DNA from: an uncultured Hormoscilla sp.
Lineage (GTDB): Bacteria; Cyanobacteriota; Cyanobacteriia; Cyanobacteriales; Desertifilaceae
Length of the DNA stretch: 64,000 nt
NCBI GenBank assembly: GCA_963921275.4
Contig: OZ001293.3
Location: forward strand, 3,520,001 to 3,584,000
Reading direction: 5' to 3'
In this document: piece after piece, positions 2,247 through 56,805 of the stretch
Numbering within the stretch: position 1 is the stretch's first letter
Layout of the letters: each line of letters begins with the position of its first letter
Made by a program: the position numbers and the translations under genes
Notes under the pieces: model-generated
Database searches by the model: none
What the model was told of the DNA's origin: nothing
What the model saw: the letters and a program-made list of their open reading frames with translations, nothing else

Positions 2247-2987
2247 TCAGCGGTTAATTAATGCAGGGAAGTTGTAAGCAATGCCTAAGATAATTCCTAC
2301 ATCGGTTGTCTCTTCCTTAAGGAAAGCAACATTAATTCTGGCGGTTGCAGTCAAGTCCTTCGAGACAGGATAATCAACACCACCAGAGATCAGGGGACCA
2401 CTATAGCCCTCATCAATTTCAAAGGCGACACCACCGCCAACGAAGGGGGCTAACACTACTGATTCAAATGGTTCCCGATCGATGGGAAAGTCATAAGCGA
2501 CAGAAAGCATTAAAACTATGCCATCGCCAAATGAACTAGCGGTGCGCAAAGACAGATTGTCGGTAAATCCAAGTTTGCCGACTGTAGCAAAGCCACTTTC
2601 CCCTAAAGCCGTGTCGCCACCTAAACCTATATCGGCACCAATTCCCAGGTAGGTGTCAGCAAGGGTGCGATCGGTTTGAGGGTCTCGACGCCTTCCCAGG
2701 TAGGTGTCAGCAAGGGTGCAATCGGTTTGAGGGTCTCGACGCCGTTGAGCGATGACCGCATTATTTTCCGATGTATTTTCAGATCGGGTTTGCTGACTGT
2801 CGCTAGTTGGGGGTTGAGCTATTAGCGCCTCAGCAGTGGTTAAAGCGCTACCTGGGAAGGAAACAGTTGTACTCAATGGTGGTAATGACTCGGAAGTCTG
2901 AGCTTGAGCGGATAAGCTATTAGCAGCAGTGGCGATCGCCATGCAACTGAGTAGGGAAGCTGTACGCCATAGGTTAATAGTACTCAC
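2247..2987 (-). CDS. Secreted/outer-membrane beta-barrel-like hypothetical protein
   Basis: Signal peptide-like N-terminus, amphipathic beta strands, C-terminal GIAYNF. Confidence 0.65.
   Translation of the reverse strand: MSTINLWRTASLLSCMAIATAANSLSAQAQTSESLPPLSTTVSFPGSALTTAEALIAQPPTSDSQQTRSENTSENNAVIAQRRRDPQTDCTLADTYLGRRRDPQTDRTLADTYLGIGADIGLGGDTALGESGFATVGKLGFTDNLSLRTASSFGDGIVLMLSVAYDFPIDREPFESVVLAPFVGGGVAFEIDEGYSGPLISGGVDYPVSKDLTATARINVAFLKEETTDVGIILGIAYNFPALINR
2642..2743. repeat. 51-bp in-frame tandem duplication
   Basis: 2642-2692 and 2693-2743 differ at one base; RRRDPQTD(C/R)TLADTYLG twice. Confidence 0.95.
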
Positions 2988-3961
2988 AATTCACTCCTCG
3001 ATGATTGATTCAGGGTGCCCATCGCTTCTACCACTTGCCCAGAGATAAAAGGCAGGATGGCGGATGATTGACTTTGAGCTTTCCCCTCTGTAAACACTAC
3101 CAATAAATAGGGTTGCTTGTCTTTAATTTCTATGTAGGCGCAGTCATGGCGGACTTGGCTGTTACTGGCTTTTGGCACCAGTCTGCTGGGGCATGACCAA
3201 AGCCGGGCATCGGTGGGGAGTCCGCCGCCGAGGAAGCTGGTGTATGAATGGTTGGGGTCTGTTTCTAAATCATCTGGGTTGAGGGTCCGGTGAATTAGAT
3301 TCATCATGGCCTGGGTTGCCTGGGAGGATACGGCGACACCGCCTACTATACTATGGAGCAGGCGGGCGGTGGCATTGGTGGTGAGCATATTGCGATTTTC
3401 TTGTCTCGAGCCCAAAAAGGCCCGATCGCGTCCGTAGGCACCGTCACTCCAGGTTTTTTGATTGACGTTGATGCTCTCAAATTCTGGCCAACCGAGGGAT
3501 TGGAAGTAACGGTTGACGATATTGCGCTGGAACTTCCAGGTCTCAAAGGGTCCAGGGGGCAGTTCTGGACCGCTAGTAGTGCCAGTGAGGACATCTACCA
3601 CAAGACTGGTGGCGTCGTTGCTGTCTCGAACAATCATGTCACGAATGGCTCGTTCCAAGTCAGCTCCAGTTTCGATCATGTTTTTGTCTCGCCACTCATA
3701 GATAGCTACCAGATAAAATAGCTTGACCACATGGGCGGGGTAAATGCGTTCCACGCCACGATAGCTGAAACCTCGGACTTGGTGTCTCCAGAATTCGGCA
3801 GTAGAGAGGGCACCGCCAGTGTTGACGGGGAAAGGTGGATCGTAGAGGATCCAGGTAAGGGCAATTTGGTTGCGGGCTAGTCCTGAGAATTGTGCCCAGG
3901 TCTTCTCCAGGATGCGATCGCCCAATTTTTCTAGTTGTTCGTCTTTGCGGAAGAAAATCAT
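2984..3961 (-). CDS. Class A beta-lactamase-like serine hydrolase with degenerate active site
   Basis: YPAHVVK at the SxxK position, DSNDAT, RNMLTT, VRHD; 7-aa insert before the KxG-type motif. Confidence 0.8.
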   Translation of the reverse strand: MIFFRKDEQLEKLGDRILEKTWAQFSGLARNQIALTWILYDPPFPVNTGGALSTAEFWRHQVRGFSYRGVERIYPAHVVKLFYLVAIYEWRDKNMIETGADLERAIRDMIVRDSNDATSLVVDVLTGTTSGPELPPGPFETWKFQRNIVNRYFQSLGWPEFESINVNQKTWSDGAYGRDRAFLGSRQENRNMLTTNATARLLHSIVGGVAVSSQATQAMMNLIHRTLNPDDLETDPNHSYTSFLGGGLPTDARLWSCPSRLVPKASNSQVRHDCAYIEIKDKQPYLLVVFTEGKAQSQSSAILPFISGQVVEAMGTLNQSSRSEL

Positions 3962-5613
3962 GGTTGAATTACTGCAAGCAAGCCGAGGCTCTGCTCAATC
4001 TACCACTGTTGAGTACAGTTGCCGCGTCAATCTGGATCTGTATGATGGGTCTGAATGTGCTAGTTTAGCAACCCAGGCTGCTGCGGGGCGTCAGTTGCGA
4101 GTGCTTTCGGTGCCACCAGGCCAGGAGGCTGTAGAAGTCTGCTTGTGCGAGGATGATTATCGCTGCTGGCTGTCAGGGCTAGATTTGCCGAAGCTGTCCT
4201 TAGCAGAAATGCCTTATCGGGCGATCGCCCTTTCGGACGCTGAGATTAAAGAACGCTTGCCAGGGGCGATCGCCTTTGCGCAAGAGGCCATGCAGCAGGT
4301 TAATTATTACCTTTGGGGCGGTACAGTTGGACCTAACTACGACTGTTCTGGTTTGATGCAGGCTGCTTTTTGCTCAGTAGGTATTTGGTTGCCTAGAGAT
4401 TCTTATCAGCAGGAGGCGTTTGTGCAGGAAATCCCAATAGTAAAATTACAACCAGGAGACCTAATTTTCTTTGGTTCGGCAGAGAAGGTTAACCACGTGG
4501 GACTATATTTAGGTGGTGCGATTCGTTCAGGCGTAAACTGGCGACGGTGAAGTCTGGTCTGGTTTCATTTGCCGGATAACTCTGGTTATCATGGGGGTTA
4601 AATTCCCTCTCCCCAGGTGTGGGGGTAACACCGGTCCTTAGTGCTGCGGGGTCACATCGCCGTGGTGCGGAGCTAGGACTTAAATGTAGGATAGCTGGCA
4701 GCCTAACCCAGTGACGCCGCTAGGAAAGATGCTCATGGTTAGAACAAGCGAACCTGTTAAAGCCTCGTTACATAGAACCAGCGGAATAAGGCTTATACGC
4801 TGGCCCAAAAGGGAAAATGGTAGTTAGTGTTGGTAGTCATCTATTGCCAGCATCGCACCCAAAGAACTCCCGGGGTATAGCAGGGGCCTACAAGCATCGA
4901 GAAATGATACCAGGGAACGAAGTAACCTCACGTGAGCTGTCCCCATTTGGACCAGTTAGATGTAAAGCGCAAGCCGCGAAGAGGAAGGATGTTCTAAGAA
5001 GCCAACGCCTGGGGTAATGCCTGGGATATGCAGACGTAGGACGGATATGGTAAGAAGCCTTTGGTGAAAGTAGCCCTAACACGTCGCAAAACTTAGGAGA
5101 AATCCAAAAGTATGAATATGGACTAGAGTCTCAGCCGGGTAAAGTTCAGAGCCCCGATAAATTGCCAGAATGGGGAAATGTTAGAGAAGAGCGGCTAGAA
5201 TGGTTTGCTGAACTACCCTCCGCGATCGCGCAGCGTGCGCGCAGCGCATACCTTCCGGAGCTGAAATCATTAACGGTCCAATAGGATTGACCATAAGGGG
5301 TAAAATTACAGAGGGTAAGGGGAATACGGGGTAACCCAATAATCCTACTGATGACAACAGCTTACCAACCAGTAGCCGGATGCGGTGAAAGTCGCAAGTC
5401 CGGTTCCGAAAGGGAGGGTTGGGGAGTGATTCCCAGCTCGACCCCGACCAGGGCAAGTACATTCATAGTTCCGGCAAGGATATGGGCAGAAATGGCATCG
5501 GCATTGACCTCTTATCGGAGCAAGGAGATGCTATTAGTCAAGCTTATTATCGCCTGTTACGGGGTGCTGGGCGGGTGCTTACCAGTTATCTACCAGGGGA
5601 TGGTAATTGGTGA
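3960..5613 (+). CDS. NlpC/P60 (C40) peptidase split by a group II intron; exons 3960-4515 and 5450-5613
   Basis: YLWGG, YDCSGL, HVGLYLG in exon 1; GKYIHSSG in exon 2; removing 4516-5449 gives in-frame LGEGKYIHSS. Confidence 0.9.
4516..5449 (+). mobile_element. ORF-less group II intron (IIB-like), 934 nt
   Basis: 5' GTGCG; domain V AGCCGGATGCGGTGAAAGTCGCAAGTCCGGTT at 5374-5405; domain VI ending ACCCCGACC; EBS1 CATCTA (4838-4843) pairs with exon end TAGGTG. Confidence 0.93.
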
Positions 5614-6057
5614 GAGTCATCTCGTTCTCATTCTGTGTTATGATATTTCTCGTTACCAGGCGAGCGCCTGGTAACGCATATCCAGAGGCTCAGCCTCATT
5701 GTTAAGTATAACTAAGATGCCATGTCAAAGCAAGCCAGGAAAAGGAAAAAATTAACGAGCTGTTACGCCGGATTTTATCGAAAAAAATAAATCCCGACTA
5801 TCGGCGAAGGGATGAAATAATATTTGGGGAAGCGTAAAAGCGATCAGCGTGGGTATTTCCTCGAAAATTTCAGGATTTGATCATAGAAAAATTAGAACAT
5901 CTGTTGGCAGAGTATTTTGCCGCTCCAGAGGATTTTTTCAGAGATTCTCCGACAATCTAGGAATTCTATGACTTTGCCGCGATTTGTGCCAAAAAGTGAT
6001 TCAATACCCAATTTATGGGGTTTGTTACCTATCTGACTTATAATTAGCGGGTATATA

Positions 6058-6770
6058 TAGCATTTCTCAAAAACATGAGGTACGAGAGTCAAGAATATAT
6101 GGAGGAGAAAGCCATGAAACCCTATTCAGTATATCTACAAAAATCGGTCTATAAAAATGATAATATATCACAAAGAAAACTGGCGAGCATATTTAGGGTA
6201 GCTCGCCAGTTTTGTTACCAAAATCATCCAGCAGGATCGGCGGCAATTTGTTACCTAAGAAAAGTCCTGATCGTCCACGAAAACTTAAGGATGAAGAACT
6301 GGCAATTATTCATAATTTAGTAAAGAAAAATAATGACTGGACCTTAGAAGAATATCAATCTAGTCTTGAAAAAGAGACCGGTGGTCAGCCGTTCGACAAT
6401 AGATAGGATGATAAAGAAGTTGGGATTTACCGTCAAAAAAAAGCGTTACATCCAACAGAGAAAAGAAGTGATAGAGTCCAAAAATTAAGGGTAGACTACT
6501 GGAAAGAAATAGAAGGAATAGACCCTTTTGACTTAATCTTCTTGGACGAATCCGGTGTTAACCTGGGGTTAACACGCATTTATGGTCGCATGTGGTCAAA
6601 GAGCCCATGGAAGTAAGCCAAGTAAGCGAAGAAAAACGTTTCGATAGTCGGAGCATCTTAAGGGAGTAGTGAATTCATTCAAGATTTTAGGTTCTTATGA
6701 TAGCTTAACTTTTGAAGCTTTTATAGTTAGACATTTAGTTCCTCGTTTATGGAAAGGAGCCTGCTCATGG
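6058..6770 (+). mobile_element. IS630-family remnant
   Basis: End TAGCATTTCTCA; MKPYS.. HTH start, LIFLDESG DDE fragment; many frameshifts. Confidence 0.75.
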
Positions 6771-7370
6771 ACTGCTTACCCAACTTAGGAAACTTTTGTG
6801 GAGTTCTTCGGGTTCGAGCAATGCAAATACCCGACCGAAGGTATCGTGGGATGGTATACCATGGTTTATACGATCTCAACTACAAGGAGGGCTTGATACA
6901 GATTGGGACATCTCATGACACTTGTGAAGTGACTCAATTAGCTATTGGTGGCTCACTTACGGCTCTATACTGTATCCATTGGCAAGCTCAATTTTATTGT
7001 TATGTGATGGCGGTGGTAGTAACAGCTCCCGCTCTTACCTGTTTAAGGAAAATCTGCAAAAGCTTAGCAACAAGCTAGGCATTGAAATTCGGATGGCTCA
7101 TTATTCCCCCTATACCTCTGAGTATAATCCCATTGAACATCGGTTGTTTCCCCATGTCGAACATGTGAGGGGGTAATATTCGACAAGGTGGAAACCGTCA
7201 AAAATTTGATAGCCACAAGGACAACAAAGACAGGATTAAAGGTATTTACAACCGTAATTGATAAGGTTTATCAAACAGGAGTGAAAGTTGGCTCAAGTTT
7301 TAAGGAAAATATGCGTCTTTGACAATATTCTCCCACAATGGAACTATACAGCCAAGCCACAACCGATGTA
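6770..7370 (+). mobile_element. ISAzo13-family transposase fragment
   Basis: GLYDL..QIGTSHDT, LLLCDGGGSN, YNPIEHRLFPH; frameshifted. Confidence 0.75.
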
Positions 7371-31855: not shown

Positions 31856-32433
31856 CTTTAATCTTCACTTCTAAATCTGCTGCTCTGACATCATAGCATA
31901 GCCAAATCATAAACTCAACTTAATCTAATCTGAGATTCAGCTGATAAATAGCTGAAATAACCCTGCCTAAAGGGTAGGGCTACAGAAACAAAGCCCGCCG
32001 GCGCGGGCTTGATTACTTGCATTCATATGTTGCTGCGGGCCTGGTTTCACCAGTAGCCCAGAAACCAGATTTTTCCCAGAAACCTGGTTTCTTAATTCAA
32101 GAAGATCAATCTCGCAACTTCCAACGGTGCAAGATCGCAATACTAAGTCACTTCAGTTTTCTTCGTCTGTTTAAGTTTGCGCTTGATGTTAAGCAAAAAC
32201 TGGAGCCAGAGTTGCTCAGGGCGATCGAAGAAAATAAAAATGTCTCCATTGGCATTCAGGAGTAGTGATAAACAAGAGATTGCCAAGAGGTGCAGGTGTT
32301 TGCCATTCTAAGGCAGAGATATGCCTCCAAACCTGGGGAGAATGGCACTGACGACGAAGGAGTGAAAAAAAGCTCCAAAGCATGCTAGATAAGGATTATA
32401 GCCCTGAAGCCTAGTAAGCTATTACCCATAATC

Positions 32434-33134: not shown

Positions 33135-33645
33135 ATGGAAATTAGTAATTTAGACCATCTGGGATTAGTGGCAGGAGTAATAGATGAAATAGGCATAGAA
33201 GAAATAATTAACCGGCGATTGGGAGAACACTGGAGAAAATCAGCTCTGGTAAAGTCATAAAAGCAATGATAATTAATGCCTTGGGGTTAATTTCATCTGT
33301 ATCTGTTTGCTAAATTTTTTGAATGCCAAGCAATAGAACATTTGCTTGGAGAAGGGATAAAAATACTTGAATGATGATAGATTGGGCAGGGTCTTTGATA
33401 AATTATCTGACATGGGTATTAGAGAAATATTTGTAGAAGTAGTTTTGTCGGTTTTGAAAAACTATCAAATCTTGATGTAATCAGCAGATTTAGATACATT
33501 TAGATGCAAGTTCATTTCATATTCATGGAGAGTATAAAGTGGAGAATGTAGAGTATGAAGTTGGAGAAGCAGAATCGAGACCGATAAAGATAACTCATGG
33601 ATATTCATTCTTACCATAGACCGGATTTGAAACAATTTACAATGG
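33135..33645 (+). mobile_element. IS1634-family N-terminal remnant
   Basis: NLDHLGLVAGVIDEIG, LNDDRLGR, ITHGYS..HRPDLKQF. Confidence 0.75.
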
Positions 33646-34377
33646 AGTTATAGCATTTCTCAGAGTTGTGTGCCATATCTTCTTATCAATCACCCCGGCT
33701 TTTAACCATGCCCGTACTTGTTTACGGATTGGTGATGTAGTATTTAATTTTTCGACTAGCGCTTTGTGGTCTATCCTGTCGAAACATTTCGCAATATCTG
33801 CATCTAATACCCATTTGGGTTTCTGTTTGATGCTGCTGAATATTGCTTCAATTGCATCGTGGCATCCCCTTCCCGGTCTGAATCCGTAAGAGTTCCCCTC
33901 CATGTATGCCTCCCATTCTGGTTCTAATACAATTTTGAGGAGCCCTTGAGTCGCGCGGTCGTGCGTTGTGGGTATTCCTAAAGGACGCTTTTCATCTCTT
34001 CTTGGCTTGGGAATCCATACACGACGTGTAGGTTTAGCCTTGTTTGAGATTTCGATTTGCCTTACCAGTTCTAGTCGTTTCTCTGGGGTCAGTGACTTAA
34101 CACCGTCCACTCCTGCCGTTTTTTTACCCTGGTTTTCCTGCGTTACCCGCTGTACCGCTAAACATTTGGCAGCCCGGGAGCTTACCAGTAACCTCTGGAG
34201 TCTGCGAACTCTTTGCTTATTGCCTTCCATTGCCGCTCTGTAAATTCGTTTTTGCAACTTGAAGACTACCCTCTCCAGCTTCTGCCAGGGGATGGCCCTC
34301 CATTCATTCATCGATTCGGAAACCGTGCTCATGACGTATGCATTGCTACTTACAACTTCACAATTGACGTTACCCAT
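33637..34377 (-). pseudogene. Group II intron reverse transcriptase/maturase, truncated before the YADD domain
   Basis: KLQKRIYRA, GKKTAGVDG, RPLGIPT, SYGFRPGR, VLDADIAKCFD; start may be 34332. Confidence 0.92.
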
Positions 34378-35645
34378 CCATTATAGAAGGGCGTTAGCTT
34401 CTCCACTCAATCTTTCCCAGATACATCCTGCCGAATATAAGCAGATGTTGCGCCTTTGGTGGCTGCTCGTGCGATTCGGTCGCTCATGACCCGCAACAGG
34501 TCATGAGCGACCGGTTACATCAACCGGGAACTTTGATGTTCATGGGGGTTAAATTCCTCCCGCCCAGATGCAGGGTTGACACCGGTCGGAGGTGCTGCGG
34601 AGCGATATCACCGTGGTGCTGAGCGAGGACTCAAATGTAGGATAGCTGGTAGCCTAAATCGGTGACTCCGCTAGGAAAGATATCCAAGGTTAGAACAAGC
34701 GAACGTATAAAAACCTCGTTAACCAAAACCAGCGGAATAAGGCTATATACGCTGGTCCCAAAAGGGGAAGCAGTCAGGGCTAGCTTTGGGCAGTGGCTAG
34801 TCATGTATCCGAAAGACTGTCGGGGAATATTACGGACCTAAAGATATCGTAAAATGACATCAAGGAACGAAGTAACCTCTCGTGTGCTGTCTGGTCTCGA
34901 CCGGCTAGACAAGTTAGATATTAAGCGCAAGCCACGGGAGGAGGGATGTCCCAAAAAGCAAATGCCCAGGGTAATGCCTGGGATAACGCCCGGAGCAATC
35001 CCGGTGATGTCCACAAGGACGCTGACGTGGGACGGATATACCAGGATGCTGTTCAGATTAGTAACTCCACATATATTATGAGCCCGATTTGGACCCCTCG
35101 GGGACTGATGGAGGTATGAGTGAAGGTGTAGGTGAAACAGGGTGACTGCCGTCGGACGGCGATATAAACTAGGCGAGAGACCACAGGTTCCTTGACAACC
35201 GCTCGCTGACCTGCACATAGAAGGAGCCAACAAGTAGACAGTAAGGGCCTACGGTGGGTAACCCCTATAAAGCCTATCCATGACAAGGACCTGGTAACCA
35301 GTAGCCGTGTGCGGTGAAAGTCGCAAGCACGGTTTCGCTCTTGGAGGGTTGGGGAGCGATTCCCAGCTCGACCCCGACCAACCTATCGACCGGTGGTTGA
35401 GAGTATGTATCTGGTTTACTTCGTTCCTCTAGATGATTGGTTGTAGTTTTAGGTGGACTCTGTATGCCGGGTTTGTTGTCAGTGCTTATTGGTCGGTAAA
35501 CGAACCGCCAATGACCGTTATCCTTTCCCGTTTTGGGCCAGCGTGTAAGCCTTTCCGCTGGTTGTTAGTGACGACACTTACAAGCCTTTGTTTTACTCAC
35601 CATGACTACTTACTCGACGGTAACCGGTTTAGGCGAGCCTAAACC
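33670..35645 (-). mobile_element. RT-encoding group II intron, truncated at both ends and interrupted by an antisense intron
   Basis: Minus strand AACCAGCGGAAAGGCTTACACGCTGGCCCAAAACGGGAAAG and GGAACGAAGTAAACC match domain I of the other introns; leads into the RT ORF. Confidence 0.85.
34469..35379 (+). mobile_element. ORF-less group II intron, 911 nt, related to 4516-5449
   Basis: GTGCG start; domain V at 35303-35334; near-identical domain VI; EBS1 GGGCAG pairs with CTGCTC, EBS2 ACCAAA pairs with TTTGGT. Confidence 0.93.
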
Positions 35646-36003: not shown

Positions 36004-36513
36004 CTAGATGTCCTTTTCGCCGAATTCGCGGGTCATGTGGTCAAAGGGCTGGTCTACAAAATCCGTATTTTCCACCCCAGCGGCTGCTGCTTGTTCTTTG
36101 ACAATCTCTTTCATAATTTTAATTCCCCGCACCGTGGGGCCAATGGGAACTCCCAGGGAGTTGTAGGTTTCCCGCAAACCGAAGAGCACGCGCTCATCCA
36201 GCAAGTCAGAGTCGCCAGCCACTAGGGCATAGCTGGCATAACGCAGATAATAATCCATATCCCGCAGACAGGCTGCATAGCGGCGAGTTGTATAGGAATT
36301 ACCGCCCGGACGAAGCAGTTCTGGCACTTCCTCATACAACCGGGAAGCTGCCTGCTTCACAATGTTCGCTGCGTTACCATTGATTGCTGCCGCTGTCTGC
36401 ACTCGTGCCAGACCGCTATTAAAATAGGCTTTCAGCCGGTCGATCGCATCTCGGTCTAGATACCGACCGGTAACATCATAAGTGGAAATCAAGCTTGTGA
36501 CTGCGTCCTGCAT
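36004..36513 (-). CDS. apcF: Allophycocyanin beta-18 subunit
   Basis: [41 protein letters not shown]; 169 aa; divergent from glnA. Confidence 0.93.
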
Positions 36514-36593
36514 GCAACTGCTCTCCCAAAACTGCATTTTGTGGTGGTTTACTATTTTCCAGCCCGGTTGTTGCCGTCCCTCCGTCACCAGAG

Positions 36594-36812
36594 ATCGAGC
36601 CTGCTTGACTGGGCTGGGAATAACTGTTAATTTTACTACAAAACACATGATCTATTTTGGGCAATTTTCCAGCTTTTGGCTGGTCCGACTCTCATCCGCT
36701 ATCGAGCCTGCTTGACTGGGCTGGGAATAACTGTTGATTTTACTACAAAACATATGATCTATTTTGGGCAATTTTCCAGCTTTTGGCTGGTCCGACTCTC
36801 ATTTGCTATCGA
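36594..36812. repeat. 107-bp tandem duplication upstream of apcF
   Basis: Units start at 36594 and 36701, nearly identical. Confidence 0.95.
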
Positions 36813-44806: not shown

Positions 44807-47604
44807 TCAATCTTCGGTAAACTGACGCCACAACGCTTCAATTTCTGCGAGGATTTCGCAAGGCAGCAGTTCTTCCTCTCCCTCATTGATGTAGCCATCA
44901 CTGTTAATATCTGCTTTTGCCCCTTTTGGGCGCATTAAAATTGCATATGTTGTCCGAAAAGCCTCTGTGTACTGATTTTCAAATTTTAAAGTATTTGGAT
45001 CTACCAATGCCCCAAAATTACCATCCTTTAGCTCATTTTCAAGCTGCGGCAGTCGATATTTACGAATTGTGTCAACTAGAAATTTATGCGCTCGTTCGGA
45101 AATGTACTTAACTACTTGCTTATCTTCTGCAATATCCTCAAACTCTTCTGGGCTTTCTACCATCTGCTTTTGCAGTTGATTGGTTTTTGTCAGAATCTGG
45201 CGGTAGTAAGCCAGTGCCCGAGCTATATCCTCTGCTCCCTCTGCTCGCTTGTGCCTGTTTGCTTCTGTAAGGAAATCCGGTAATATTTTTAGGAGCTTTG
45301 GAGTCGGTAGCTCGATCCCAAGAGCGACATCCCGAATAATTTGTAGAGACTCTTCCGGTTGCAACCAACCAAATCCGATAAAAGCAATGATTCCGAATAT
45401 AAAAGTAGCAACACCACCACTAATTTGGCTCCGAGTCACTAAACGCGCCTTTTGACTAGCCTTGATGTATTCTCGATCCATAGAGCTGAGTTCATCTCTA
45501 TAGTTATTATAAATCTCTTCTACCTCTACCAACCAGGATCCTCGTAGTAAAGAATCGCGATGCTTACCTTTTTCTTTCCACAAGTTAGCTGCTTGCTCTA
45601 TCTCCCGCTGCTTCCGCAAACGAATTCTATTTTTATCCAACCACCAACGCAATGTTTCCCAGCGACGAATGAGAATTTCATGAGCTATTTATACTGTCAC
45701 TTTTCCTTTTATTTCCTCTATTTCTAGTGACAGTTCATCTGATTCTAGTACAGTTGCAACTGATTCCTGGCTTGGCACGCTAACCTCCTCATTTTCCTCT
45801 TGGTTCGTGACAATCAGCCTTGCGTCAGTTAAGGCTTTGAGGGTTCTCTCCACTAACTCTTCAGGATATTTCTCCCTAACCAAATCGGATTTGTATACCC
45901 GGCGTCCCGTATCCTCAGTTCCATCTCCCAAATTGGTTAGCTCCAGAAAAATTTACTGAGCGCAAGCCTGAGCTTCCGCATCTAAACTCTCGTAAACAGC
46001 TTTAGCTTTTCGATCTAACGCGCCCTCAAGACCACCAATCTTTTCCCAATATACTTGTAAAGTTAGCTTCCCTCTTTGACGTTTTTCCCACAACGTTTCC
46101 AAAACCAATTCTAGTATGGGTAAATTTCCAGACGAGTCATTGCTCCCAGACGAGTCGTTCATCTGCTGCAACAGTTCTTCTACCAGCTCTGGTTCTACCT
46201 CCAGTCCGACTTTCTCTGCAGGTTTGACGATGACCTGGCGATAGTCATCTAGACTGGGTGGCACCAACACATAAGACTGCTGTAACTTTTCATAGAGTTT
46301 TCTTACTTTGAGACAAGAGGCGATAAAATCTGCTCGGAGTGTGATTACCAGTTTGAATTTATCCGCCGCGTATTCTAAAGCTTCCAGAAGCATGTCTAAA
46401 AAACTTTGGCGCTCTGGGTCTAAAAATTTTTGGTGCTCCTTTGAAGTTTCTTGTTCTTGTAGAGTAAAAAGTTCCTCAAATTGGTCTACTAACAACACTA
46501 CCATTGGCTCTGTTCGCTGGCGCAGCCACCGGACAAATCCTTCGCCTCCAAAATGCAACAATCCTTCTATTTCCATTTGCTGGCGATTTTTTTTCTCTTC
46601 TGTTCCAGCATCTACTAATGCGGAAGCCAAGGCTTGAATAGGATGCTTTCCAGGGCGAAAGCTCTTAATCAACCACTGTTCGCTTCCAGGTATCTGTTTC
46701 CCTTGCTGCAACTGGGCGATTAATCCAGCCCGCACGACGGAAGATTTACCGCTACCAGAAGCTCCCACTACAGGTAGAAAGGACCGCTGGCTGAGTTCGT
46801 TGATGAGTCTCTGCGTCAGATCCTCTCGCCCGTAAAAGTATTTGGCATCTTTGACCCCAAAGGCTCTTAACCCCATGTAGGGACACAATCCGACATCTAC
46901 TGGTTTGGCACTTTTTTCCCCAGGTGGCAAGATTTCAATCACGCCCTGGGTTGCTGAGAGGGAGGCATCCCACCAAATTTTGCTTTCTGCAAGTTCTGTA
47001 TGGATTTGAACAATCCATTTGGCGACAGGAAGACCATTTTCTGAGTCAGCTACTTCCAAGGCTTTGAGTAAAACTTGGGCAAATTCTTCTGAATTCTGGA
47101 GGGTTGCAGCACCGGCTATCAAGCACTGACCTATTTGAGATTCGAGACGCAAGTCTTCTACCCAATCTGCTAAAGATTCTGCCCCAGGACAATCTAAGAT
47201 AATGATTTGTCGATCGATTTCTGATTGGTGCAGTTGCTGTCTTAACCAAGAACGACTGATTTCAATGCAATCGCCAATGACCAATAAGGCTTCTCCAGTC
47301 TGGGTTTGTTCGATTCGCCCTCGCAGGTATAGGAAGGCGGTTGATTTTTGTTGAGATGCTTACCAATGGAGGGTTTCAGGATGCGATCGCAAACAATCCT
47401 GAATCGCTCCTTGACATCTGGCAAGTCTGTTTTTTCTGGATGCCAATAATTAAGCTCGAATTCCCCTGCACCTTTCAACGATTTAATCAATTCCAAAGTC
47501 GTTTGACCGTCCGATAGTCCTTCTACTACCAACGCCTGTCGTGGAGGGCGAGAGTCAACATCTACAGTTTTTAAGCCCAAAACCAGTTCCCCCATTGCTG
47601 CCAC
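44807..47604 (-). pseudogene. nSTAND1-type NTPase signalling protein, multiply frameshifted
   Basis: CPYMGLRAF, GASGSGKSS, VDQFEELFT, TLRADF, GDGTEDT, W-rich repeat and TM helix across four ORF pieces. Confidence 0.85.
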
Positions 47605-47694
47605 AATCCATTTAGGTGTTTGTAATGTATATTCTTTGCAGAAAGAATCAGTTTCGCCAATTTGCTGTGGTAATTCTGATATTTCCTCCCTCAG

Positions 47695-48456
47695 CTAGTT
47701 GGGAATTGACCACTGTTCTGCCAGACCCAAACGCTTTTCATATAAGCGTTGTCTCCAGCCTCCATGTTCTAGCAAGGCTCCCCAGAGAGAGAATGGTAAT
47801 GCTCGTCTGGGAAAAGCTACAGAAGGATTTCCCAAATGCTCTAGCAAGTTGTTTGCCTGGGCTAGGAGTAAAGCTGGCAAGGGAGTAATTTCGCTGCGAG
47901 TTGCTGCTGACGGCCAGACTTGACGCCCTACCCACAGGACGTTCAAATCATCAATTAACTCCTCCGCCTCCAGGGAATAGGTGCGATCGCGAGAATGATA
48001 ACGTCCCTGATCGTGCAATTGTAAATGGGTAGAATAGCCCCAAATTCTGACAAACCCTTCATCAGGGTCTACTTGGGCCGCCAGGTAATAATCAGCAGCC
48101 CACATAGGGATATCCAGCCATTCTTGGGGAACCCGCAATTCGGTCAAATCTATTGTATCGCTAGGAATCAGTACCAATCGTTTTGTCCCCAACTGAATAG
48201 CAGTCCCATTGACAACTTCCCAGAAACTAGGGAGAGCCGAGACAACAGGCCAAATCCTGGTAACAGAATTATATTCCGCTTGCAGCCAAGCGAGGAAAGT
48301 CTGCAAGCAAAGTCTATTAAGATAGGCTCTCCAGCGACCACTTGGAGAAGAGAAGGACTGACTTTGCTTCCAAGCTTCTGCTTGTGCGGTTTCCGATATC
48401 TCCAACCACAGATGAGTTTCCTCAGTAAATAGATCCAGGGCTAATTCCATAATCAA
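47695..48456 (-). pseudogene. DUF1822-family protein, probably C-terminally truncated
   Basis: WRAYLNRLCL, WEVVNGTAI, LRVPQEWLDIP.WAADYYLA. Confidence 0.75.
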
Positions 48457-54436: not shown

Positions 54437-55063
54437 ATGCGAGTCAAGATTTGCGGGATAACAATAACTTCACAGGCGATGGCGATCACCCAGTTAGGAG
54501 CAACAGCACTAGGGTTTATCTGTGTGCGGTCCTCTGAGCGTTACATAACGCCTGAAAATATCCGGGTGGTGGTAGAGCAGTTGCCAGGAGCGATCGACCG
54601 CATCGGCGTGTTTGCCAACGCCCCCTTAGAAGAAATCTGTCAAACGGTGGCAACTGCTCAATTGAGTGGCGTCCAGCTCCATGGCAGCGAGTTGCCGGAA
54701 TTTTGTCACCAATTGCGTCGTACCCTGCCGACGATAGAAATTATTAAAGCCCTGAGAGTAAAGACGGAAGAAGCCTTAAATCAGGTAGATGTGTACATTG
54801 ACTGTGTAGATGCTATATTGCTAGACGCCTACCATCCAGAAAAGCTTGGAGGTACAGGCAAAACCCTGGACTGGTCTGCCTTAAAGCAATTTCATCCCCG
54901 GTGCCCCTGGTTCCTTGCCGGTGGCTTAACGCCAGACAATGTCCAATCAGCCCTGGATCTAGTTCACCCCAATGGTATCGATCTATCCAGCGGTGTAGAG
55001 CGCCAACCTGGAGATAAGGATCTGGCGAAAATTGCCCGCCTGTTTGAGAAACTGCGGCTCTAG
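54437..55063 (+). CDS. trpF: Phosphoribosylanthranilate isomerase
   Basis: [39 protein letters not shown]. Confidence 0.95.
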
Positions 55064-55753
55064 TTTCCTTTACTGTTCTTGAGAGCCTCAAATTTATAGC
55101 CAACACCCCGCACTGTCTGAATCAGTGTTAGTTGATTATCAGTTTCCAGCTTTCTGCGAATTTGACCGATATGTACGTCCACAACTCGTGGATCCCCTTC
55201 ATATTCGTACTCCCATACTTGTTTAATCAGTTCAGCACGACGCCAAGCTCGATTGAGATGGCTAGCTAAAAAGTACAGCAAGTGGAATTCCAGGGCAGTT
55301 AAAGACAATACCTGACCATCCAGATTGACTTCCCGACTGACCGAGTCGATGGCTAGCCAGTCAAAAATTAAGGGTTGCTGCTGAGGGGGCGTCACTGTTC
55401 GCTGGCGCTTCAAAATCGCCTCCACCCGATATTTCAGTTCTTCGAGATTAAAGGGTTTGGTGAGGTAGTCATCGGCTCCCTTAGAAAACCCAGCGATTTT
55501 ATCAGTGGGATCGGCCCGGGAGGTGAGCATGAGCACAAATACATCAGTGCGACTCTGCATTTCCTGACAGAGGTTATAACCAAGCATCGGGTAGGTTCAC
55601 ATCCAGAATCACCAAGTCTGGATGAAATTGCTCAAACAGCCTCATGCCTGTCTTACCGTCGGCGGCAGACTGCATTTGATAATTTTGTTTGGCCAAAAAG
55701 CGATAGATAAGATTGCGAATGGCAGAATCGTCGAGAATTTTGGCTGGAAGCAT
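55060..55753 (-). pseudogene. OmpR-family response regulator, frameshifted in the receiver domain
   Basis: GADDYLTKPF, RVVDVHIGQIR, TVRGVGY; N-terminal MLPAKILDDSAIRN..PDLVILDVNLPD out of frame. Confidence 0.8.
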
Positions 55754-55793
55754 GTCTTATAACTCCGCAGATAACAGCTGCTTCTGATAATTA

Positions 55794-56805
55794 ACCTAAG
55801 TTGCGACCTATTAAAAAAAATATGAATTACCCACTTAGACTTTACAGATATTTGGGATATTTCGTAGCTTTTGATACAAAATTATATTTTTTTTGTGCTA
55901 GACGGCGGGTTGGCTGTTTATAGGTTATAATGTACTAAAATAATAGTTAATTGCTGGGGGATATAGATGATGGAAGATATGATTACAACAATTTTTGTTC
56001 TTTGTGACGAGCTACTAAAAGCGTTAAATATAAAAGAAGATCCACAAGTAAAAATGAACAATGCCGAAGTGATGACAGTCGGATTAGTTGCTGCATATTT
56101 TTTCGGAGGACACCACGATCGCTCTTGTCAATTTATGGTCGAACACAAGTATATAAAAAATCTGTTAAGTAAAAGTAGGTTCAATCGTCGATTACACAAT
56201 ATTGACGAACCAATTTGGATGTTTTTCTTCCAAGTTATAGCTCAAACATTTAAAGAGCTCAATCCGGGTCAAGAATATATTCTTGATAGTTTCCCGGTGC
56301 CAGTATGTGATAATATTAGGATTGATAGATGCCAAATTTATAACAAGGAAGAATATCGAGGGTATATTGCCAGTAAAAAACGTTATTTTTATGGATTAAG
56401 AGTTCATATGTTGGTAAACAAAAATGGAAAGCCAATAGAATTTTATCTAGATACTGGTAGTTATAATGATGTTAAAGTTTTGCAATCTTTTGGCTTTGAC
56501 TTACCATCAAATTCAATAGTTTATGGAGATAAAGCTTATAATGATTATCAATTAGAGGATTTACTAAAAGAGTCGTCAAGTATAATGTTAAAACCTTTGC
56601 GAAAAAAGAACTCAAAAAGAAAAGAATATTCTTGTTTTGAATATATACAAAAAGTAACAAGAAAACAAGTTGAAACCTGTTTTAGTCGAATCACCAATTT
56701 GTTTCCCAAGTCAATTCATGCTGTTACATCTAAGGGATTAGAGTTGAAAATAATTCTCTTTATCATAGCTTTTTGTATCCAATTTTTATAGGTCGCAACT
56801 TGAGT
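55794..56805 (+). mobile_element. IS982-family element, apparently intact
   Basis: TIRs ACCTAAGTTGCGACCTA / TAGGTCGCAACTTGAGT; TSD TAATTA; low GC. Confidence 0.92.
55967..56791 (+). CDS. IS982-family DDE transposase
   Basis: ILDSFPVPVC, YFYGLRVH, YGDKAY, RKQVETCFS. Confidence 0.92.
   Translation: MMEDMITTIFVLCDELLKALNIKEDPQVKMNNAEVMTVGLVAAYFFGGHHDRSCQFMVEHKYIKNLLSKSRFNRRLHNIDEPIWMFFFQVIAQTFKELNPGQEYILDSFPVPVCDNIRIDRCQIYNKEEYRGYIASKKRYFYGLRVHMLVNKNGKPIEFYLDTGSYNDVKVLQSFGFDLPSNSIVYGDKAYNDYQLEDLLKESSSIMLKPLRKKNSKRKEYSCFEYIQKVTRKQVETCFSRITNLFPKSIHAVTSKGLELKIILFIIAFCIQFL

Follow-up and report, generated by a model that had tools for sequence, protein, structure and literature searches.

Analysis of a 64 kb stretch of DNA from a Hormoscilla genome (hereafter the window) revealed that the gene of an SH3b–NlpC/P60 peptidase is interrupted, in sense orientation, by a group II intron that carries no RT ORF and belongs to a multi-copy family of ORF-less introns. 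The element is best explained as a group II intron with an intact structure that belongs to the cyanobacterial chloroplast-like/IIB lineage and has lost its RT ORF. Taken as a whole, the locus is probably best read as a peptidase gene from which this intact intron is removed with the aid of a maturase supplied in trans, so that the complete enzyme would be produced. The elements of the interrupted gene are as follows.

3960..4515 (+), exon 1, codons 1–185 and base 1 of codon 186, from Pfam and ortholog identity
4503..4508 (+), IBS2, CTATAT in exon 1, 5/6 pairs with ACATAG, family register −13..−9
4510..4515 (+), IBS1, TAGGTG, the six exon-1 bases next to the intron, 6/6 pairs with EBS1
4516..5449 (+), ORF-less group II intron, 934 nt, GTGCG...GACC, from Rfam, the ortholog junction, family copies and the covarying fold
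4517..4924 (+), domain I, approximate, from the consensus fold mapped through alignment columns
4770..4775 (+), EBS2, ACATAG, family register CATAG at 4771–4775
4838..4843 (+), EBS1, CATCTA, in the loop of hairpin 4828–4852, the loop positions matching the EBS1 of other copies
4926..4984 (+), domain II, approximate, from the consensus fold
4991..5042 (+), domain III, approximate, from the consensus fold
5043..5370 (+), domain IV without an RT ORF, with family-conserved basal helices, a variable interior and a GCGATCGC palindrome cluster
5372..5406 (+), domain V, AGC at 5374–5376, GAAA loop, 2 nt bulged out of the 3′ strand, from the Rfam alignment and the fold
5407..5449 (+), domain VI and 3′ tail, with a candidate branch-point A bulged at 5441, from the Rfam alignment and family 3′ ends
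5450..5613 (+), exon 2, from base 2 of codon 186 to the stop codon, from the in-silico splice

The peptidase gene runs from the ATG at 3960 to a stop codon ending at 5613 and comprises 239 codons once spliced. Pfam assigned SH3_16 (E = 3.2e-14) and NLPC_P60 (E = 3.1e-22, profile positions 3–73 of 105) to exon 1, while exon 2 on its own gave no Pfam match. The catalytic codons are distributed over both exons, with Cys129 (4344–4346) and His179 (4494–4496) in exon 1 and His191 (5464–5466) in exon 2. After in-silico splicing the Cys-His-His triad, as defined for AvPCP/NpPCP-type peptidases (PMC2954226), is complete, and the 12-residue spacing of its two histidines equals that of His291 and His303 in the YkfC triad (PMC2954226). 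The spliced product is colinear with the intron-less ortholog P0002 over 239/239 residues at 91.2% identity (170/185 residues in exon 1 and 48/54 in exon 2). P0002 in turn matched the solved structure 2hbw_A over residues 5–234 (E = 6.2e-97). The peptidase gene is orthologous to the cyanobacterial enzymes with solved structures 2hbw and 2evr (AvPCP/NpPCP), with which it has the SH3b plus NlpC/P60 two-domain build in common; the genes of the solved enzymes are uninterrupted, whereas the window gene is split by the intron. AvPCP and NpPCP are γ-D-Glu-DAP endopeptidases that act on murein peptides whose N-terminal L-Ala is free (PMC2954226), and a predicted AvPCP-type γ-D-Glu-DAP murein-peptide endopeptidase is the best explanation of the window gene product. 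An initial annotation, made from the sequence of the window, had correctly recognized an NlpC/P60 peptidase; its further description as a cell-wall hydrolase is imprecise for an ortholog of AvPCP and NpPCP, enzymes that act on murein peptides.

Both exons are free of stops and frameshifts. At the 81 columns that are at least 95% conserved in 119 homologs, the spliced product shows no violation (0/81), 19 of these columns being located in exon 2; among the homologs themselves the median is 1 violation and the highest count is 3. All 119 other homologs listed are uninterrupted proteins of 221–268 aa, and the window's own ORF alone is cut to 196 aa, in which truncated form the gene is recorded in the protein collection (P0001). 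No close paralog of the peptidase encoded on the 6,879,066-bp contig was found among the best 120 protein matches, and the gene is single-copy-looking.

The junction was determined to the base by comparison with intron-less orthologs. Joining 4515 to 5450 in silico yielded HVGLYLG-E-GKYIHSSGK, identical to 4/4 of the closest intron-less orthologs among the matches listed (P0002–P0005). Since this splice restores the ortholog sequence HVGLYLG-E-GKYIHS, the intron lies between the catalytic residues His179 and His191; it cuts codon 186 after its first base, seven codons past His179. Among three acceptors tried (5449, 5450 and 5451), 5450 alone gave an open 720-nt frame. The 3′ end was also located from the family: the identical copies L032, L037 and L106 diverge right after the fourth base past CCCC, and 13 SP12CHS1 copies likewise diverge directly after TAAC. 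The initial annotation had proposed a sense-oriented group II intron, devoid of an ORF, that separates the catalytic His from the third triad residue, the junction TTAGGTG|AGGGCAAG and stop-free exons. The intron is borne out by Rfam, covariation and the ortholog junction, the nucleotide junction is the one that the intron-less orthologs demand, and the open frame agrees with the third claim.

Two other junctions were considered and rejected. A 3′ splice site after 5448 would give a canonical ...AC terminus and coincides with the end of the Rfam alignment; the resulting joining of 4515 to 5449 introduces a frameshift and an early stop, and the family copies end one base further. Junction 4514|5449 is in frame and encodes Gly-Gln, where 4/4 of the closest orthologs have Glu. 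The intron would then start with GGTGCG, and the EBS1 pairing runs through position −1.

The ribozyme was recognized by Rfam model RF00029 (domain V/VI) at 5371–5448 on the plus strand, at 47.7 bits (gathering score 40; E = 2.9e-6 over the whole 64 kb; model positions 1–77 of 77). At a relaxed threshold, the search of 4300–5700 returned no model for domains I–IV, the extra matches being sub-threshold plastid domain V families only. A consensus fold was derived from six sequences, namely the window intron and five relatives, L002 having been left out of the initial seven. The fold comprises six domains (DI–DVI) and 226 pairs, with 94.6% of cells paired compared with 35–48% when the partners were slid. 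Compensatory changes were found at 97/226 pairs versus 12–20 in the slid controls, and none of 500 shuffles reached such a value. The window intron keeps 214 of the 226 pairs (6 broken, 6 at gaps) and is equally good as the best relative, L032 (217 kept, 9 broken). Covariation across the family extends to the domain IV basal helices 28–31 and 35–37. The 5′ end reads GTGCG (4516–4520), in accordance with GUGYG, and is invariant in 6/6 aligned family members.

The 3′ end differs from the terminal AY of group II introns, which is a consensus and not an absolute rule: the window intron ends in ...GACC. A CC terminus is also present in the second window copy (win_i2, see below), L002, L015, L032/L037, L056 and L069, and an AC end in the SP12CHS1 copies and L003; the CC 3′ end is a trait of the intron lineage. 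The candidate branch-point A at 5441 is located 8 nt ahead of the last intron base, the usual distance of the branch A from the end of group II introns being 6–7 nt.

The target-site pairings suggested earlier, EBS1 CATCTA with IBS1 TAGGTG and the candidate EBS2 ACATAG with CTATAT, were recovered, as was the AGC triad of domain V. EBS1 and IBS1 form 6/6 pairs, one G–U included. In eight copies, pairing with the copy's own site amounted to 6, 6, 6, 5, 6, 6, 6 and 5 of 6 positions, compared with a non-self mean of 2.3, so that the two elements covary. EBS2/IBS2 covaries across copies as well (non-self mean 2.07); in the family register, 4/5 pairs are formed in the window intron, against 5/5 in four copies. 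Two further copies, L042p and L083p, have poor EBS1/IBS1 matches (2/6 and 1/6), indicating that some family copies are not at cognate sites. The EBS2/IBS2 mismatch, the CC end and the 8-nt branch-point distance are family traits that might reduce splicing efficiency.

The intron contains five ORFs of at least 40 aa, none of which matched any Pfam family (E ≤ 0.01). A tblastn search with IEP P0121 for an RT ORF remnant in domain IV gave weak matches only, including a possible N-terminal remnant at E = 29. The best match within the intron (E = 4.9) falls in domain V, and the clear match corresponds to the IEP C-terminus, encoded by domain V itself. Three further intron-related elements were mapped in the window.

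33637..34377 (−), truncated RT ORF, 246 aa, RVT_N and the first half of RVT_1, part of a third, degenerate intron
34469..35379 (+), second ORF-less intron of the family (win_i2), 911 nt, GACC end, from Rfam, alignment, nhmmer and pairings
35416..35634 (−), domain I fragment of the degenerate minus-strand intron, from nhmmer, profile positions 192–415, E = 3.5e-11

The second ORF-less copy scored 45.0 bits in Rfam and has its own EBS1/IBS1 combination, GGGCAG/CTGCTC. Its antisense insertion parted the domain I fragment from the RT piece of the degenerate intron, for which neither D5 nor GTGYG was found on the minus strand. The truncated RT matches RVT_1 profile positions 1–107 of 205, and its ORF ends ahead of the YADD block; it is the sole RT in the window, as the initial annotation had stated. 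We considered this RT as the lost ORF of the peptidase-gene intron and rejected it, given that it is 29 kb away, on the opposite strand and within a different intron remnant. Other broken genes occur in the window, namely a frameshifted sensor gene, transposase pieces and half a response regulator. A CRISPR-repeat-like Rfam match at 31987–32010 (27.4 bits, below the gathering score of 35; E = 0.082) was attributed to chance, and the repeat scan detected no tandem array at this position.

Candidate maturases were identified by protein search. P0121, P0148, P0167 and P0138 each contain RVT_N, RVT_1, GIIM and HNH, with YADD present, and P0123 has the same four domains with a shortened C-terminus. 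These five IEPs are 71–83% identical to the RT fragment of the window and are encoded on a 6,879,066-bp contig. P0001 is also encoded on a contig of 6,879,066 bp, from which we infer that the two are the same and that full-length IEPs are apparently present in the genome of the window gene. With at least four full-length RT/maturase/HNH proteins on apparently the same contig, a maturase supplied in trans is the likely mechanism of splicing. A search for an intact related RT had been suggested initially; with these four full-length IEPs, placed on the same contig by inference, the problem of a missing maturase largely dissolves. The best solved relative of P0121 is 6me0_C, 'Maturase reverse transcriptase' (E = 4.1e-108), which we take to be the T. 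elongatus TeI4h protein.

We describe here that the window intron belongs to a multi-copy ORF-less family, with the second copy in the window and many more in Hormoscilla genome bins. Mobility is evidenced by L032, L037 and L106, which share identical 3′ parts at different sites, and by at least 13 SP12CHS1 contig ends that stop inside the intron. A domain V pattern scan of genome contigs returned at least 119 loci from many phyla, the pattern being too general; among the 119 loci listed, none comes from a 6,879,066-bp contig, and tblastn of the spliced peptidase against them gave no match. No RT was found within 3.5 kb of the Hormoscilla ORF-less copies fetched. An RT-encoding relative, L003, was found in a Coleofasciculus sp. 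S288 bin. Its domains I–III match positions 1–565 of the ORF-less family profile (E = 1.3e-24), it has the same start as the window intron, GTGCGATTCG, and ends in ...GACCCCTAAC, and its RT is 63% identical to the RT fragment of the window. L003 is about 2.5 kb long and carries the RT ORF in domain IV, whereas the window intron has none. The literature search found no publication joining 'Hormoscilla' and 'group II intron'.

Since the intron interrupts the peptidase gene, the enzyme would be obtainable only after RNA splicing; given how the gene is built, peptidase production would logically depend on splicing. We hypothesize that the gene would be transcribed as a single pre-mRNA, in which EBS1 (4838–4843) and EBS2 (4770–4775) would hold the end of exon 1 while a maturase encoded by another, RT-bearing intron of the genome binds the intron RNA and aids its folding. 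The 2′-OH of the bulged A at 5441 would attack 4515|4516, and the freed exon 1 would then attack 5449|5450. The ligated mRNA would encode the 239-aa enzyme with the Cys129-His179-His191 triad, and unspliced RNA only the 196-aa product without His191. The insertion may have originated by retrohoming or retrotransposition into an EBS-matching site, which would have been used because it matches the EBS sequences of the intron, not because it lies within the triad.

A different reading accepts the intron and holds the gene to be dead: the insertion would be recent, the gene dispensable and splicing poor or absent, with the exons intact for want of decay time. We regard this as rather unlikely. It is consistent with the lineage-specific insertion, all 119 other listed homologs being of uninterrupted size, with the imperfect EBS2/IBS2 pairing and with the role of AvPCP-type enzymes in recycling, where they act on free murein peptides (PMC2954226) and may therefore be dispensable. 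The further broken genes in the window also point this way, as they suggest ongoing gene decay in the genome, and a recently killed gene would be indistinguishable by the conservation test. However, the intron is in sense orientation and keeps 214/226 family pairs, the exons have neither stops, frameshifts nor changes at the 81 highly conserved columns (19 in exon 2), full-length IEPs are apparently available in the same genome, and the best 120 matches include no close paralog on the 6,879,066-bp contig.

The complete ribozyme core would also be compatible with protein-free self-splicing in vivo, making a maturase needless in cis or trans, which we consider very unlikely. Self-splicing of group II introns usually needs non-physiological salt and Mg, which counts against it, and the spread of the identical ORF-less copies L032, L037 and L106 requires an RT in trans anyway. 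Moreover, the basal helices of domain IV, the place of IEP binding in related introns as described for Thermosynechococcus (PMC2882425), are conserved and covary in the family. The chance that no intron exists at all, i.e., that a D5-like hairpin and GTGCG occur fortuitously and the two ORFs represent either distinct genes or one that was rearranged, is virtually nil. The lack of a Pfam match for exon 2 alone would fit such a view, but it is already refuted by the base-exact junction relative to the orthologs, the Rfam match over the gathering score and the homology, along the full length, to a strongly covarying family.

Splicing assisted by a trans-acting maturase, the reading that we prefer, has its closest precedents in the Thermosynechococcus TeI3/TeI4 and the Trichodesmium ORF-less introns, and the arrangement is already known from other cyanobacteria. 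In Thermosynechococcus elongatus, ORF-less TeI3 introns are described as spliced and mobilised by IEPs that related TeI4 introns encode (Mohr, Ghanem & Lambowitz 2010, PMC2882425). As outlined in that study, the TeI3/TeI4 introns resemble the window family in that ORF-less introns of <~1 kb derive from RT-encoding relatives, the copies carry diverged EBS sequences, the IEP genes reside in other copies of the same genome (here, apparently the same genome) and copies are inserted within other introns. In contrast, the T. elongatus copies are, according to the same source (PMC2882425), mostly intergenic with few within genes, whereas the window copy splits the region that codes for a conserved enzyme's catalytic domain. 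Trans-mobilisation was demonstrated for TeI3/TeI4 in that work (PMC2882425) and is a probable feature of the window family. The domain IV interiors differ between copies of the window family, with no evidence for one shared deletion break-point. Furthermore, the intron at 34469–35379 sits antisense in another intron and is thus not a twintron.

In Trichodesmium erythraeum, 17 introns are reported to splice in vivo, 10/17 without an ORF (Pfreundt & Hess 2015, PMC4649490). In the account given there, ORF-less introns reside inside conserved protein genes and their splicing is thought to be trans-maturase-dependent (PMC4649490), the same situation as proposed for the window. The host genes and the organism are different, and splicing there takes place in vivo, whereas that of the window intron is predicted from DNA. 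The trans-maturase experiment cited for Trichodesmium is reportedly that of Meng et al. 2005. As the principle is established in Thermosynechococcus and Trichodesmium, the window case extends it and does not change it.

Together, our results add a further clear bacterial ORF-less group II intron within the catalytic core of a conserved enzyme and suggest that ORF-less introns of one family occur in multiple copies in the Hormoscilla lineage; such cases are relevant to how group II introns came to depend on shared trans-acting splicing factors. Where such an intron is overlooked, the peptidase gene is mis-read, and annotators would label the enzyme broken. A more far-reaching view, which we consider quite unlikely, is that of an undescribed, MITE-like family of RT-less, CC-ended group II introns that has multiplied in Hormoscilla-lineage genomes via a few shared maturases and gates the production of a housekeeping peptidase through a common trans-acting splicing apparatus. 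If true, this family would capture, in bacteria, the transition of a selfish retroelement into an intron dependent on its host, and cell-wall turnover may be truly coupled to intron activity at the level of regulation.

The ORF opening at ATG 3960 reaches an in-frame stop at 4550. Within its first 185 residues Pfam recognises a bacterial SH3 domain (SH3_16, E 3.2e-14) and an NlpC/P60 domain of which the first two thirds are present (E 3.1e-22, profile 3–73 of 105). The 53-residue reading at 5452–5610 gave no domain match when searched alone. Exon 1 ending at 4515 was joined in a script to three acceptors, 5449, 5450 and 5451; only 5450 gave an open frame (720 nt), the other two producing stops or a shifted frame. 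The spliced product of 239 residues is colinear over its entire length with P0002, a C40 peptidase likewise of 239 aa and assigned to Hormoscilla sp. SP5CHS1 by its source name, at 91.2% identity (170/185 residues in exon 1, 48/54 in exon 2). The sequence HVGLYLG-E-GKYIHSSGK across 4515/5450 is identical to that of the four closest intron-less orthologs, P0002–P0005. An in-frame alternative, 4514/5449, would yield Gln and was ruled out, since Gln occurs in none of these four orthologs, the GTGCG intron start would be lost and EBS1 pairs up to −1. Because the 4515/5450 junction matches the orthologs, leaves GTGCG as the 5′ start at 4516 and allows EBS1 pairing to −1, the intron spans 4516–5449 (934 nt) and separates the first base of codon 186 (Glu) from the other two.

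The initial annotation had placed the intron after the catalytic His and before the third residue of the triad, and the two histidines indeed flank it:

4344–4346, catalytic Cys129, exon 1
4494–4496, catalytic His179, exon 1
5464–5466, catalytic His191, exon 2

Compared with solved structures, the intron-less ortholog finds the cyanobacterial enzymes 2hbw_A (E 6.2e-97) and 2evr_A (E 1e-90). The published description gives a Cys-His-His triad with the two histidines 12 residues apart (PMC2954226), a spacing shared by the window peptidase. The peptidase start codon (3960–3962) overlaps by 2 bases the divergent start (3961) of an opposite-strand ORF (2984–3962 region) for a 325-aa beta-lactamase-family protein, so each promoter must sit within the coding region of the other gene.

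The Rfam model RF00029 matched domains V/VI at 5371–5448 (+) with 47.7 bits, above its gathering score of 40 (E 2.9e-6, whole window as scope). A blastn search of the window with the intron revealed a second plus-strand copy, intron 2, with exact limits 34469–35379 (911 nt). Relatives were also sought by a domain V pattern scan of the genome collection; the pattern proved too general, returning at least 119 loci from many phyla, and those listed include at least 21 Hormoscilla loci from three bins. Full-length relatives at six of the listed Hormoscilla loci measure 925–1355 nt, and all six lack an RT ORF. With the window RT fragment as the tblastn query, 33 of the 119 listed loci were matched (34 stretches), none of them a listed Hormoscilla locus.

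A six-sequence alignment, from which locus L002 was left out as its insertions lengthened the alignment, yielded a consensus structure showing all six classical domains. Its first computation gave 215 pairs, 92 with compensatory change; the recomputed fold has 226 pairs.

Consensus fold compared with its controls
Cells paired: 94.6% observed; 35–48% with partners slid 1–3 columns; reached in 0/500 shuffles
Pairs changed on both sides: 97 observed; 12–20 with partners slid 1–3 columns; reached in 0/500 shuffles

Of these 226 pairs, 214 are retained by the copy in the peptidase gene; 6 of the remainder are broken and 6 fall at gaps, compared with 7–20 broken in the other copies. Judged from sequence, this is a real and intact ribozyme, and the peptidase-gene copy is not decayed. 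Inside its domain IV (5215–5250) there is a GC-rich cluster of palindromes, among them GCGATCGC, the cyanobacterial HIP1 motif; the cluster is absent from the other family copies at the same alignment place.

The Rfam alignment stops at the canonical AY of ...GAC (5448), and the intron ends one base on, at ...GACC. Intron 2 has an identical 3′ end; loci L032, L037 and L106 of one Hormoscilla bin share one sequence through ...GACCCCTACC, diverging immediately after it, and 13 copies of another Hormoscilla bin are identical through ...GACCCCTAAC and diverge thereafter. RT-encoding relatives from Coleofasciculus and Nostoc end in ...TAAC or ...TACC. The family end lies 4 bases past the CCCC of domain VI, with the bulged A at 5441 being 8 nt from the last intron base. 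The ...GACC end is a lineage trait, not a defect.

The place of EBS1 within its hairpin loop is constant across all copies, and its sequence covaries with that of the six bases at the end of the exon. The EBS1/IBS1 hexamers originally proposed, CATCTA/TAGGTG, pair at 6/6 positions and the candidate EBS2 hexamers, ACATAG/CTATAT, at 5/6; across the family, EBS2/IBS2 was scored out of 5 in the register −13 to −9.

Pairing of intron copies with their own exon 1 sites
EBS1/IBS1 (of 6), peptidase-gene intron: 6
EBS1/IBS1, other copies: intron 2, 6; L002, 6; L015, 5; L032, 6; L037, 6; L056, 6; L069, 5; L042p, 2; L083p, 1
EBS1/IBS1, non-self control: mean 2.3; 7/72 reach 5
EBS2/IBS2 (of 5), peptidase-gene intron: 4
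EBS2/IBS2, other copies: four copies, 5; L056 and L042p, 4; L032, L037 and L083p, 3
EBS2/IBS2, non-self control: mean 2.07; 5/72 reach 4

That the intron sits within the catalytic triad most likely reflects the presence of a site matching the EBS motifs, not function.

A Pfam search of the five internal ORFs of at least 40 aa returned no match at E ≤ 0.01, in keeping with the ORF-less designation. A full-length IEP (intron-encoded RT/maturase) used as the tblastn query gave only weak matches to the intron, the clearest in domain V, where 5372–5406 encodes the C-terminal PDxVK..SPVLK of the lineage IEPs P0121, P0148, P0167 and P0138. The ORF-less copies still "encode" this motif in frame via domain V. 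The sole RT in the window was correctly described as truncated, ending before the YADD block, and is part of a third, wrecked intron:

33637–34377, minus strand, truncated RT ORF (RVT_N and first half of RVT_1)
35416–35634, minus strand, domain I fragment of the wrecked intron

GTGYG and domain V were sought on the minus strand of the remnant, and neither was found. Intron 2 is inserted antisense into this RT-bearing element and, because of that orientation, does not form a twintron with it. The stretch 33637–35634 is a nested mobile-element wreck comprising the RT fragment and the domain I piece, devoid of a 5′ end and of domain V.

A protein search with the RT fragment, covering longer proteins only, identified seven relatives on a 6,879,066-bp contig. 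The contig of P0001, the window's own exon-1 ORF, is likewise given as 6,879,066 bp, and from this equal length we infer that the seven relatives belong to the same genome as the peptidase-gene intron. If so, the genome does contain intact related RTs, as the initial annotation suggested should be checked: P0121 (591 aa), P0148 (596 aa), P0167 (588 aa) and P0138 (558 aa) all combine RVT_N, RVT_1, GIIM and HNH with YADD. P0123 (554 aa) shares all four domains but is shortened at the C-terminus; P0135 and P0122 lack HNH. The best solved relative of P0121 is 6me0_C, "Maturase reverse transcriptase" (E 4.1e-108), which we take to be the Thermosynechococcus TeI4h protein.

To gauge whether the host gene is alive, the spliced protein was compared in an alignment, as a proxy for dN/dS, with its 119 other top-ranking homologs. 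Of the columns conserved at ≥95% among them there are 81 (62 in exon 1, 19 in exon 2), and the spliced protein departs at none, against a median of 1 departure and at most 3 in the homologs themselves. All 119 are 221–268 aa long, so none appears interrupted at the intron site, and the insertion is confined to this lineage. Exon conservation and lineage-specific insertion would be expected both of a gene that is alive and spliced and of one that received the intron very recently. A host gene already dead after such an insertion keeps some weight because the window holds other broken genes; the absence of departures at all 81 columns speaks against it, although this also fits a very recent insertion.

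Directly downstream of the peptidase gene (6212–7322) lie pieces of an ISAZ013-type DDE transposase, split over several ORFs and thus a broken IS:

6212–6406, HTH_32
6979–7176, ISAZ013-type profile 180–240
7188–7322, ISAZ013-type profile 250–292

At 1–2069, a PAS/HisKA ORF (164–1003) overlaps in a different frame a GGDEF+EAL ORF (876–2069) with a partial GGDEF (profile 54–158 of 161), probably a frameshifted or rearranged signalling gene. At 55060–56791, a response regulator ORF with only the second receiver half (profile 55–110 of 111) adjoins a DDE transposase (55967–56791) and was likely truncated by an IS. At 45953–48456, an nSTAND1 NTPase ORF (profile 1–280 of 379) and a DUF1822 ORF (1–229 of 370) look short at the C-terminus, adjoin a sigma-70 region-4 protein and may be truncated. 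A 107-bp unit repeated twice in tandem (36594–36812, 96% matches) overlaps the 5′ end of a phycobilisome-protein ORF (36004–36648, minus).

The scheme that we propose builds on the observed intron, its limits, fold, family and exon integrity, and derives both splicing and its reliance on a maturase in trans from established group II chemistry and two precedents. Transcription would run through the intron, and ribozyme folding would be helped by a maturase from an IEP-encoding intron elsewhere. With the 5′ exon held by EBS1 and EBS2, the A at 5441 would branch onto 4516, and exon ligation at 4515/5450 would give an mRNA for the 239-aa enzyme; unspliced RNA would yield a 196-aa product without His191. 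In T. elongatus, related introns supply the "driver" IEPs that mobilise ORF-less TeI3 introns (PMC2882425), and of 17 Trichodesmium introns spliced in vivo, 10 lack an ORF and many lie within protein-coding genes (PMC4649490). A survey further reports that the expansion of chloroplast-like-type introns is specific to cyanobacteria (PMC8919778).

In the Hormoscilla sp. SP12CHS1 bin, many contigs start or stop inside domain V of a near-identical intron copy (L007, L041, L042, L044, L049, L051, L068, L079, L081, L082 and L109), and a single 4-kb contig is bounded on either side by an intron end (L041/L042). This pattern suggests a high-copy repeat breaking the assembly.

Together, our results indicate that the earlier reading of the peptidase-gene intron is real and correct. 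That ORF-less group II introns reside in conserved cyanobacterial genes and are served by maturases in trans is established; the host gene and the Hormoscilla-lineage ORF-less family appear undescribed, the literature searched containing no joint mention of "Hormoscilla" and "group II intron". It is conceivable, if rather improbable, that the ORF-less family and its shared maturases constitute a splicing apparatus common to the whole genome, through which housekeeping genes are gated.
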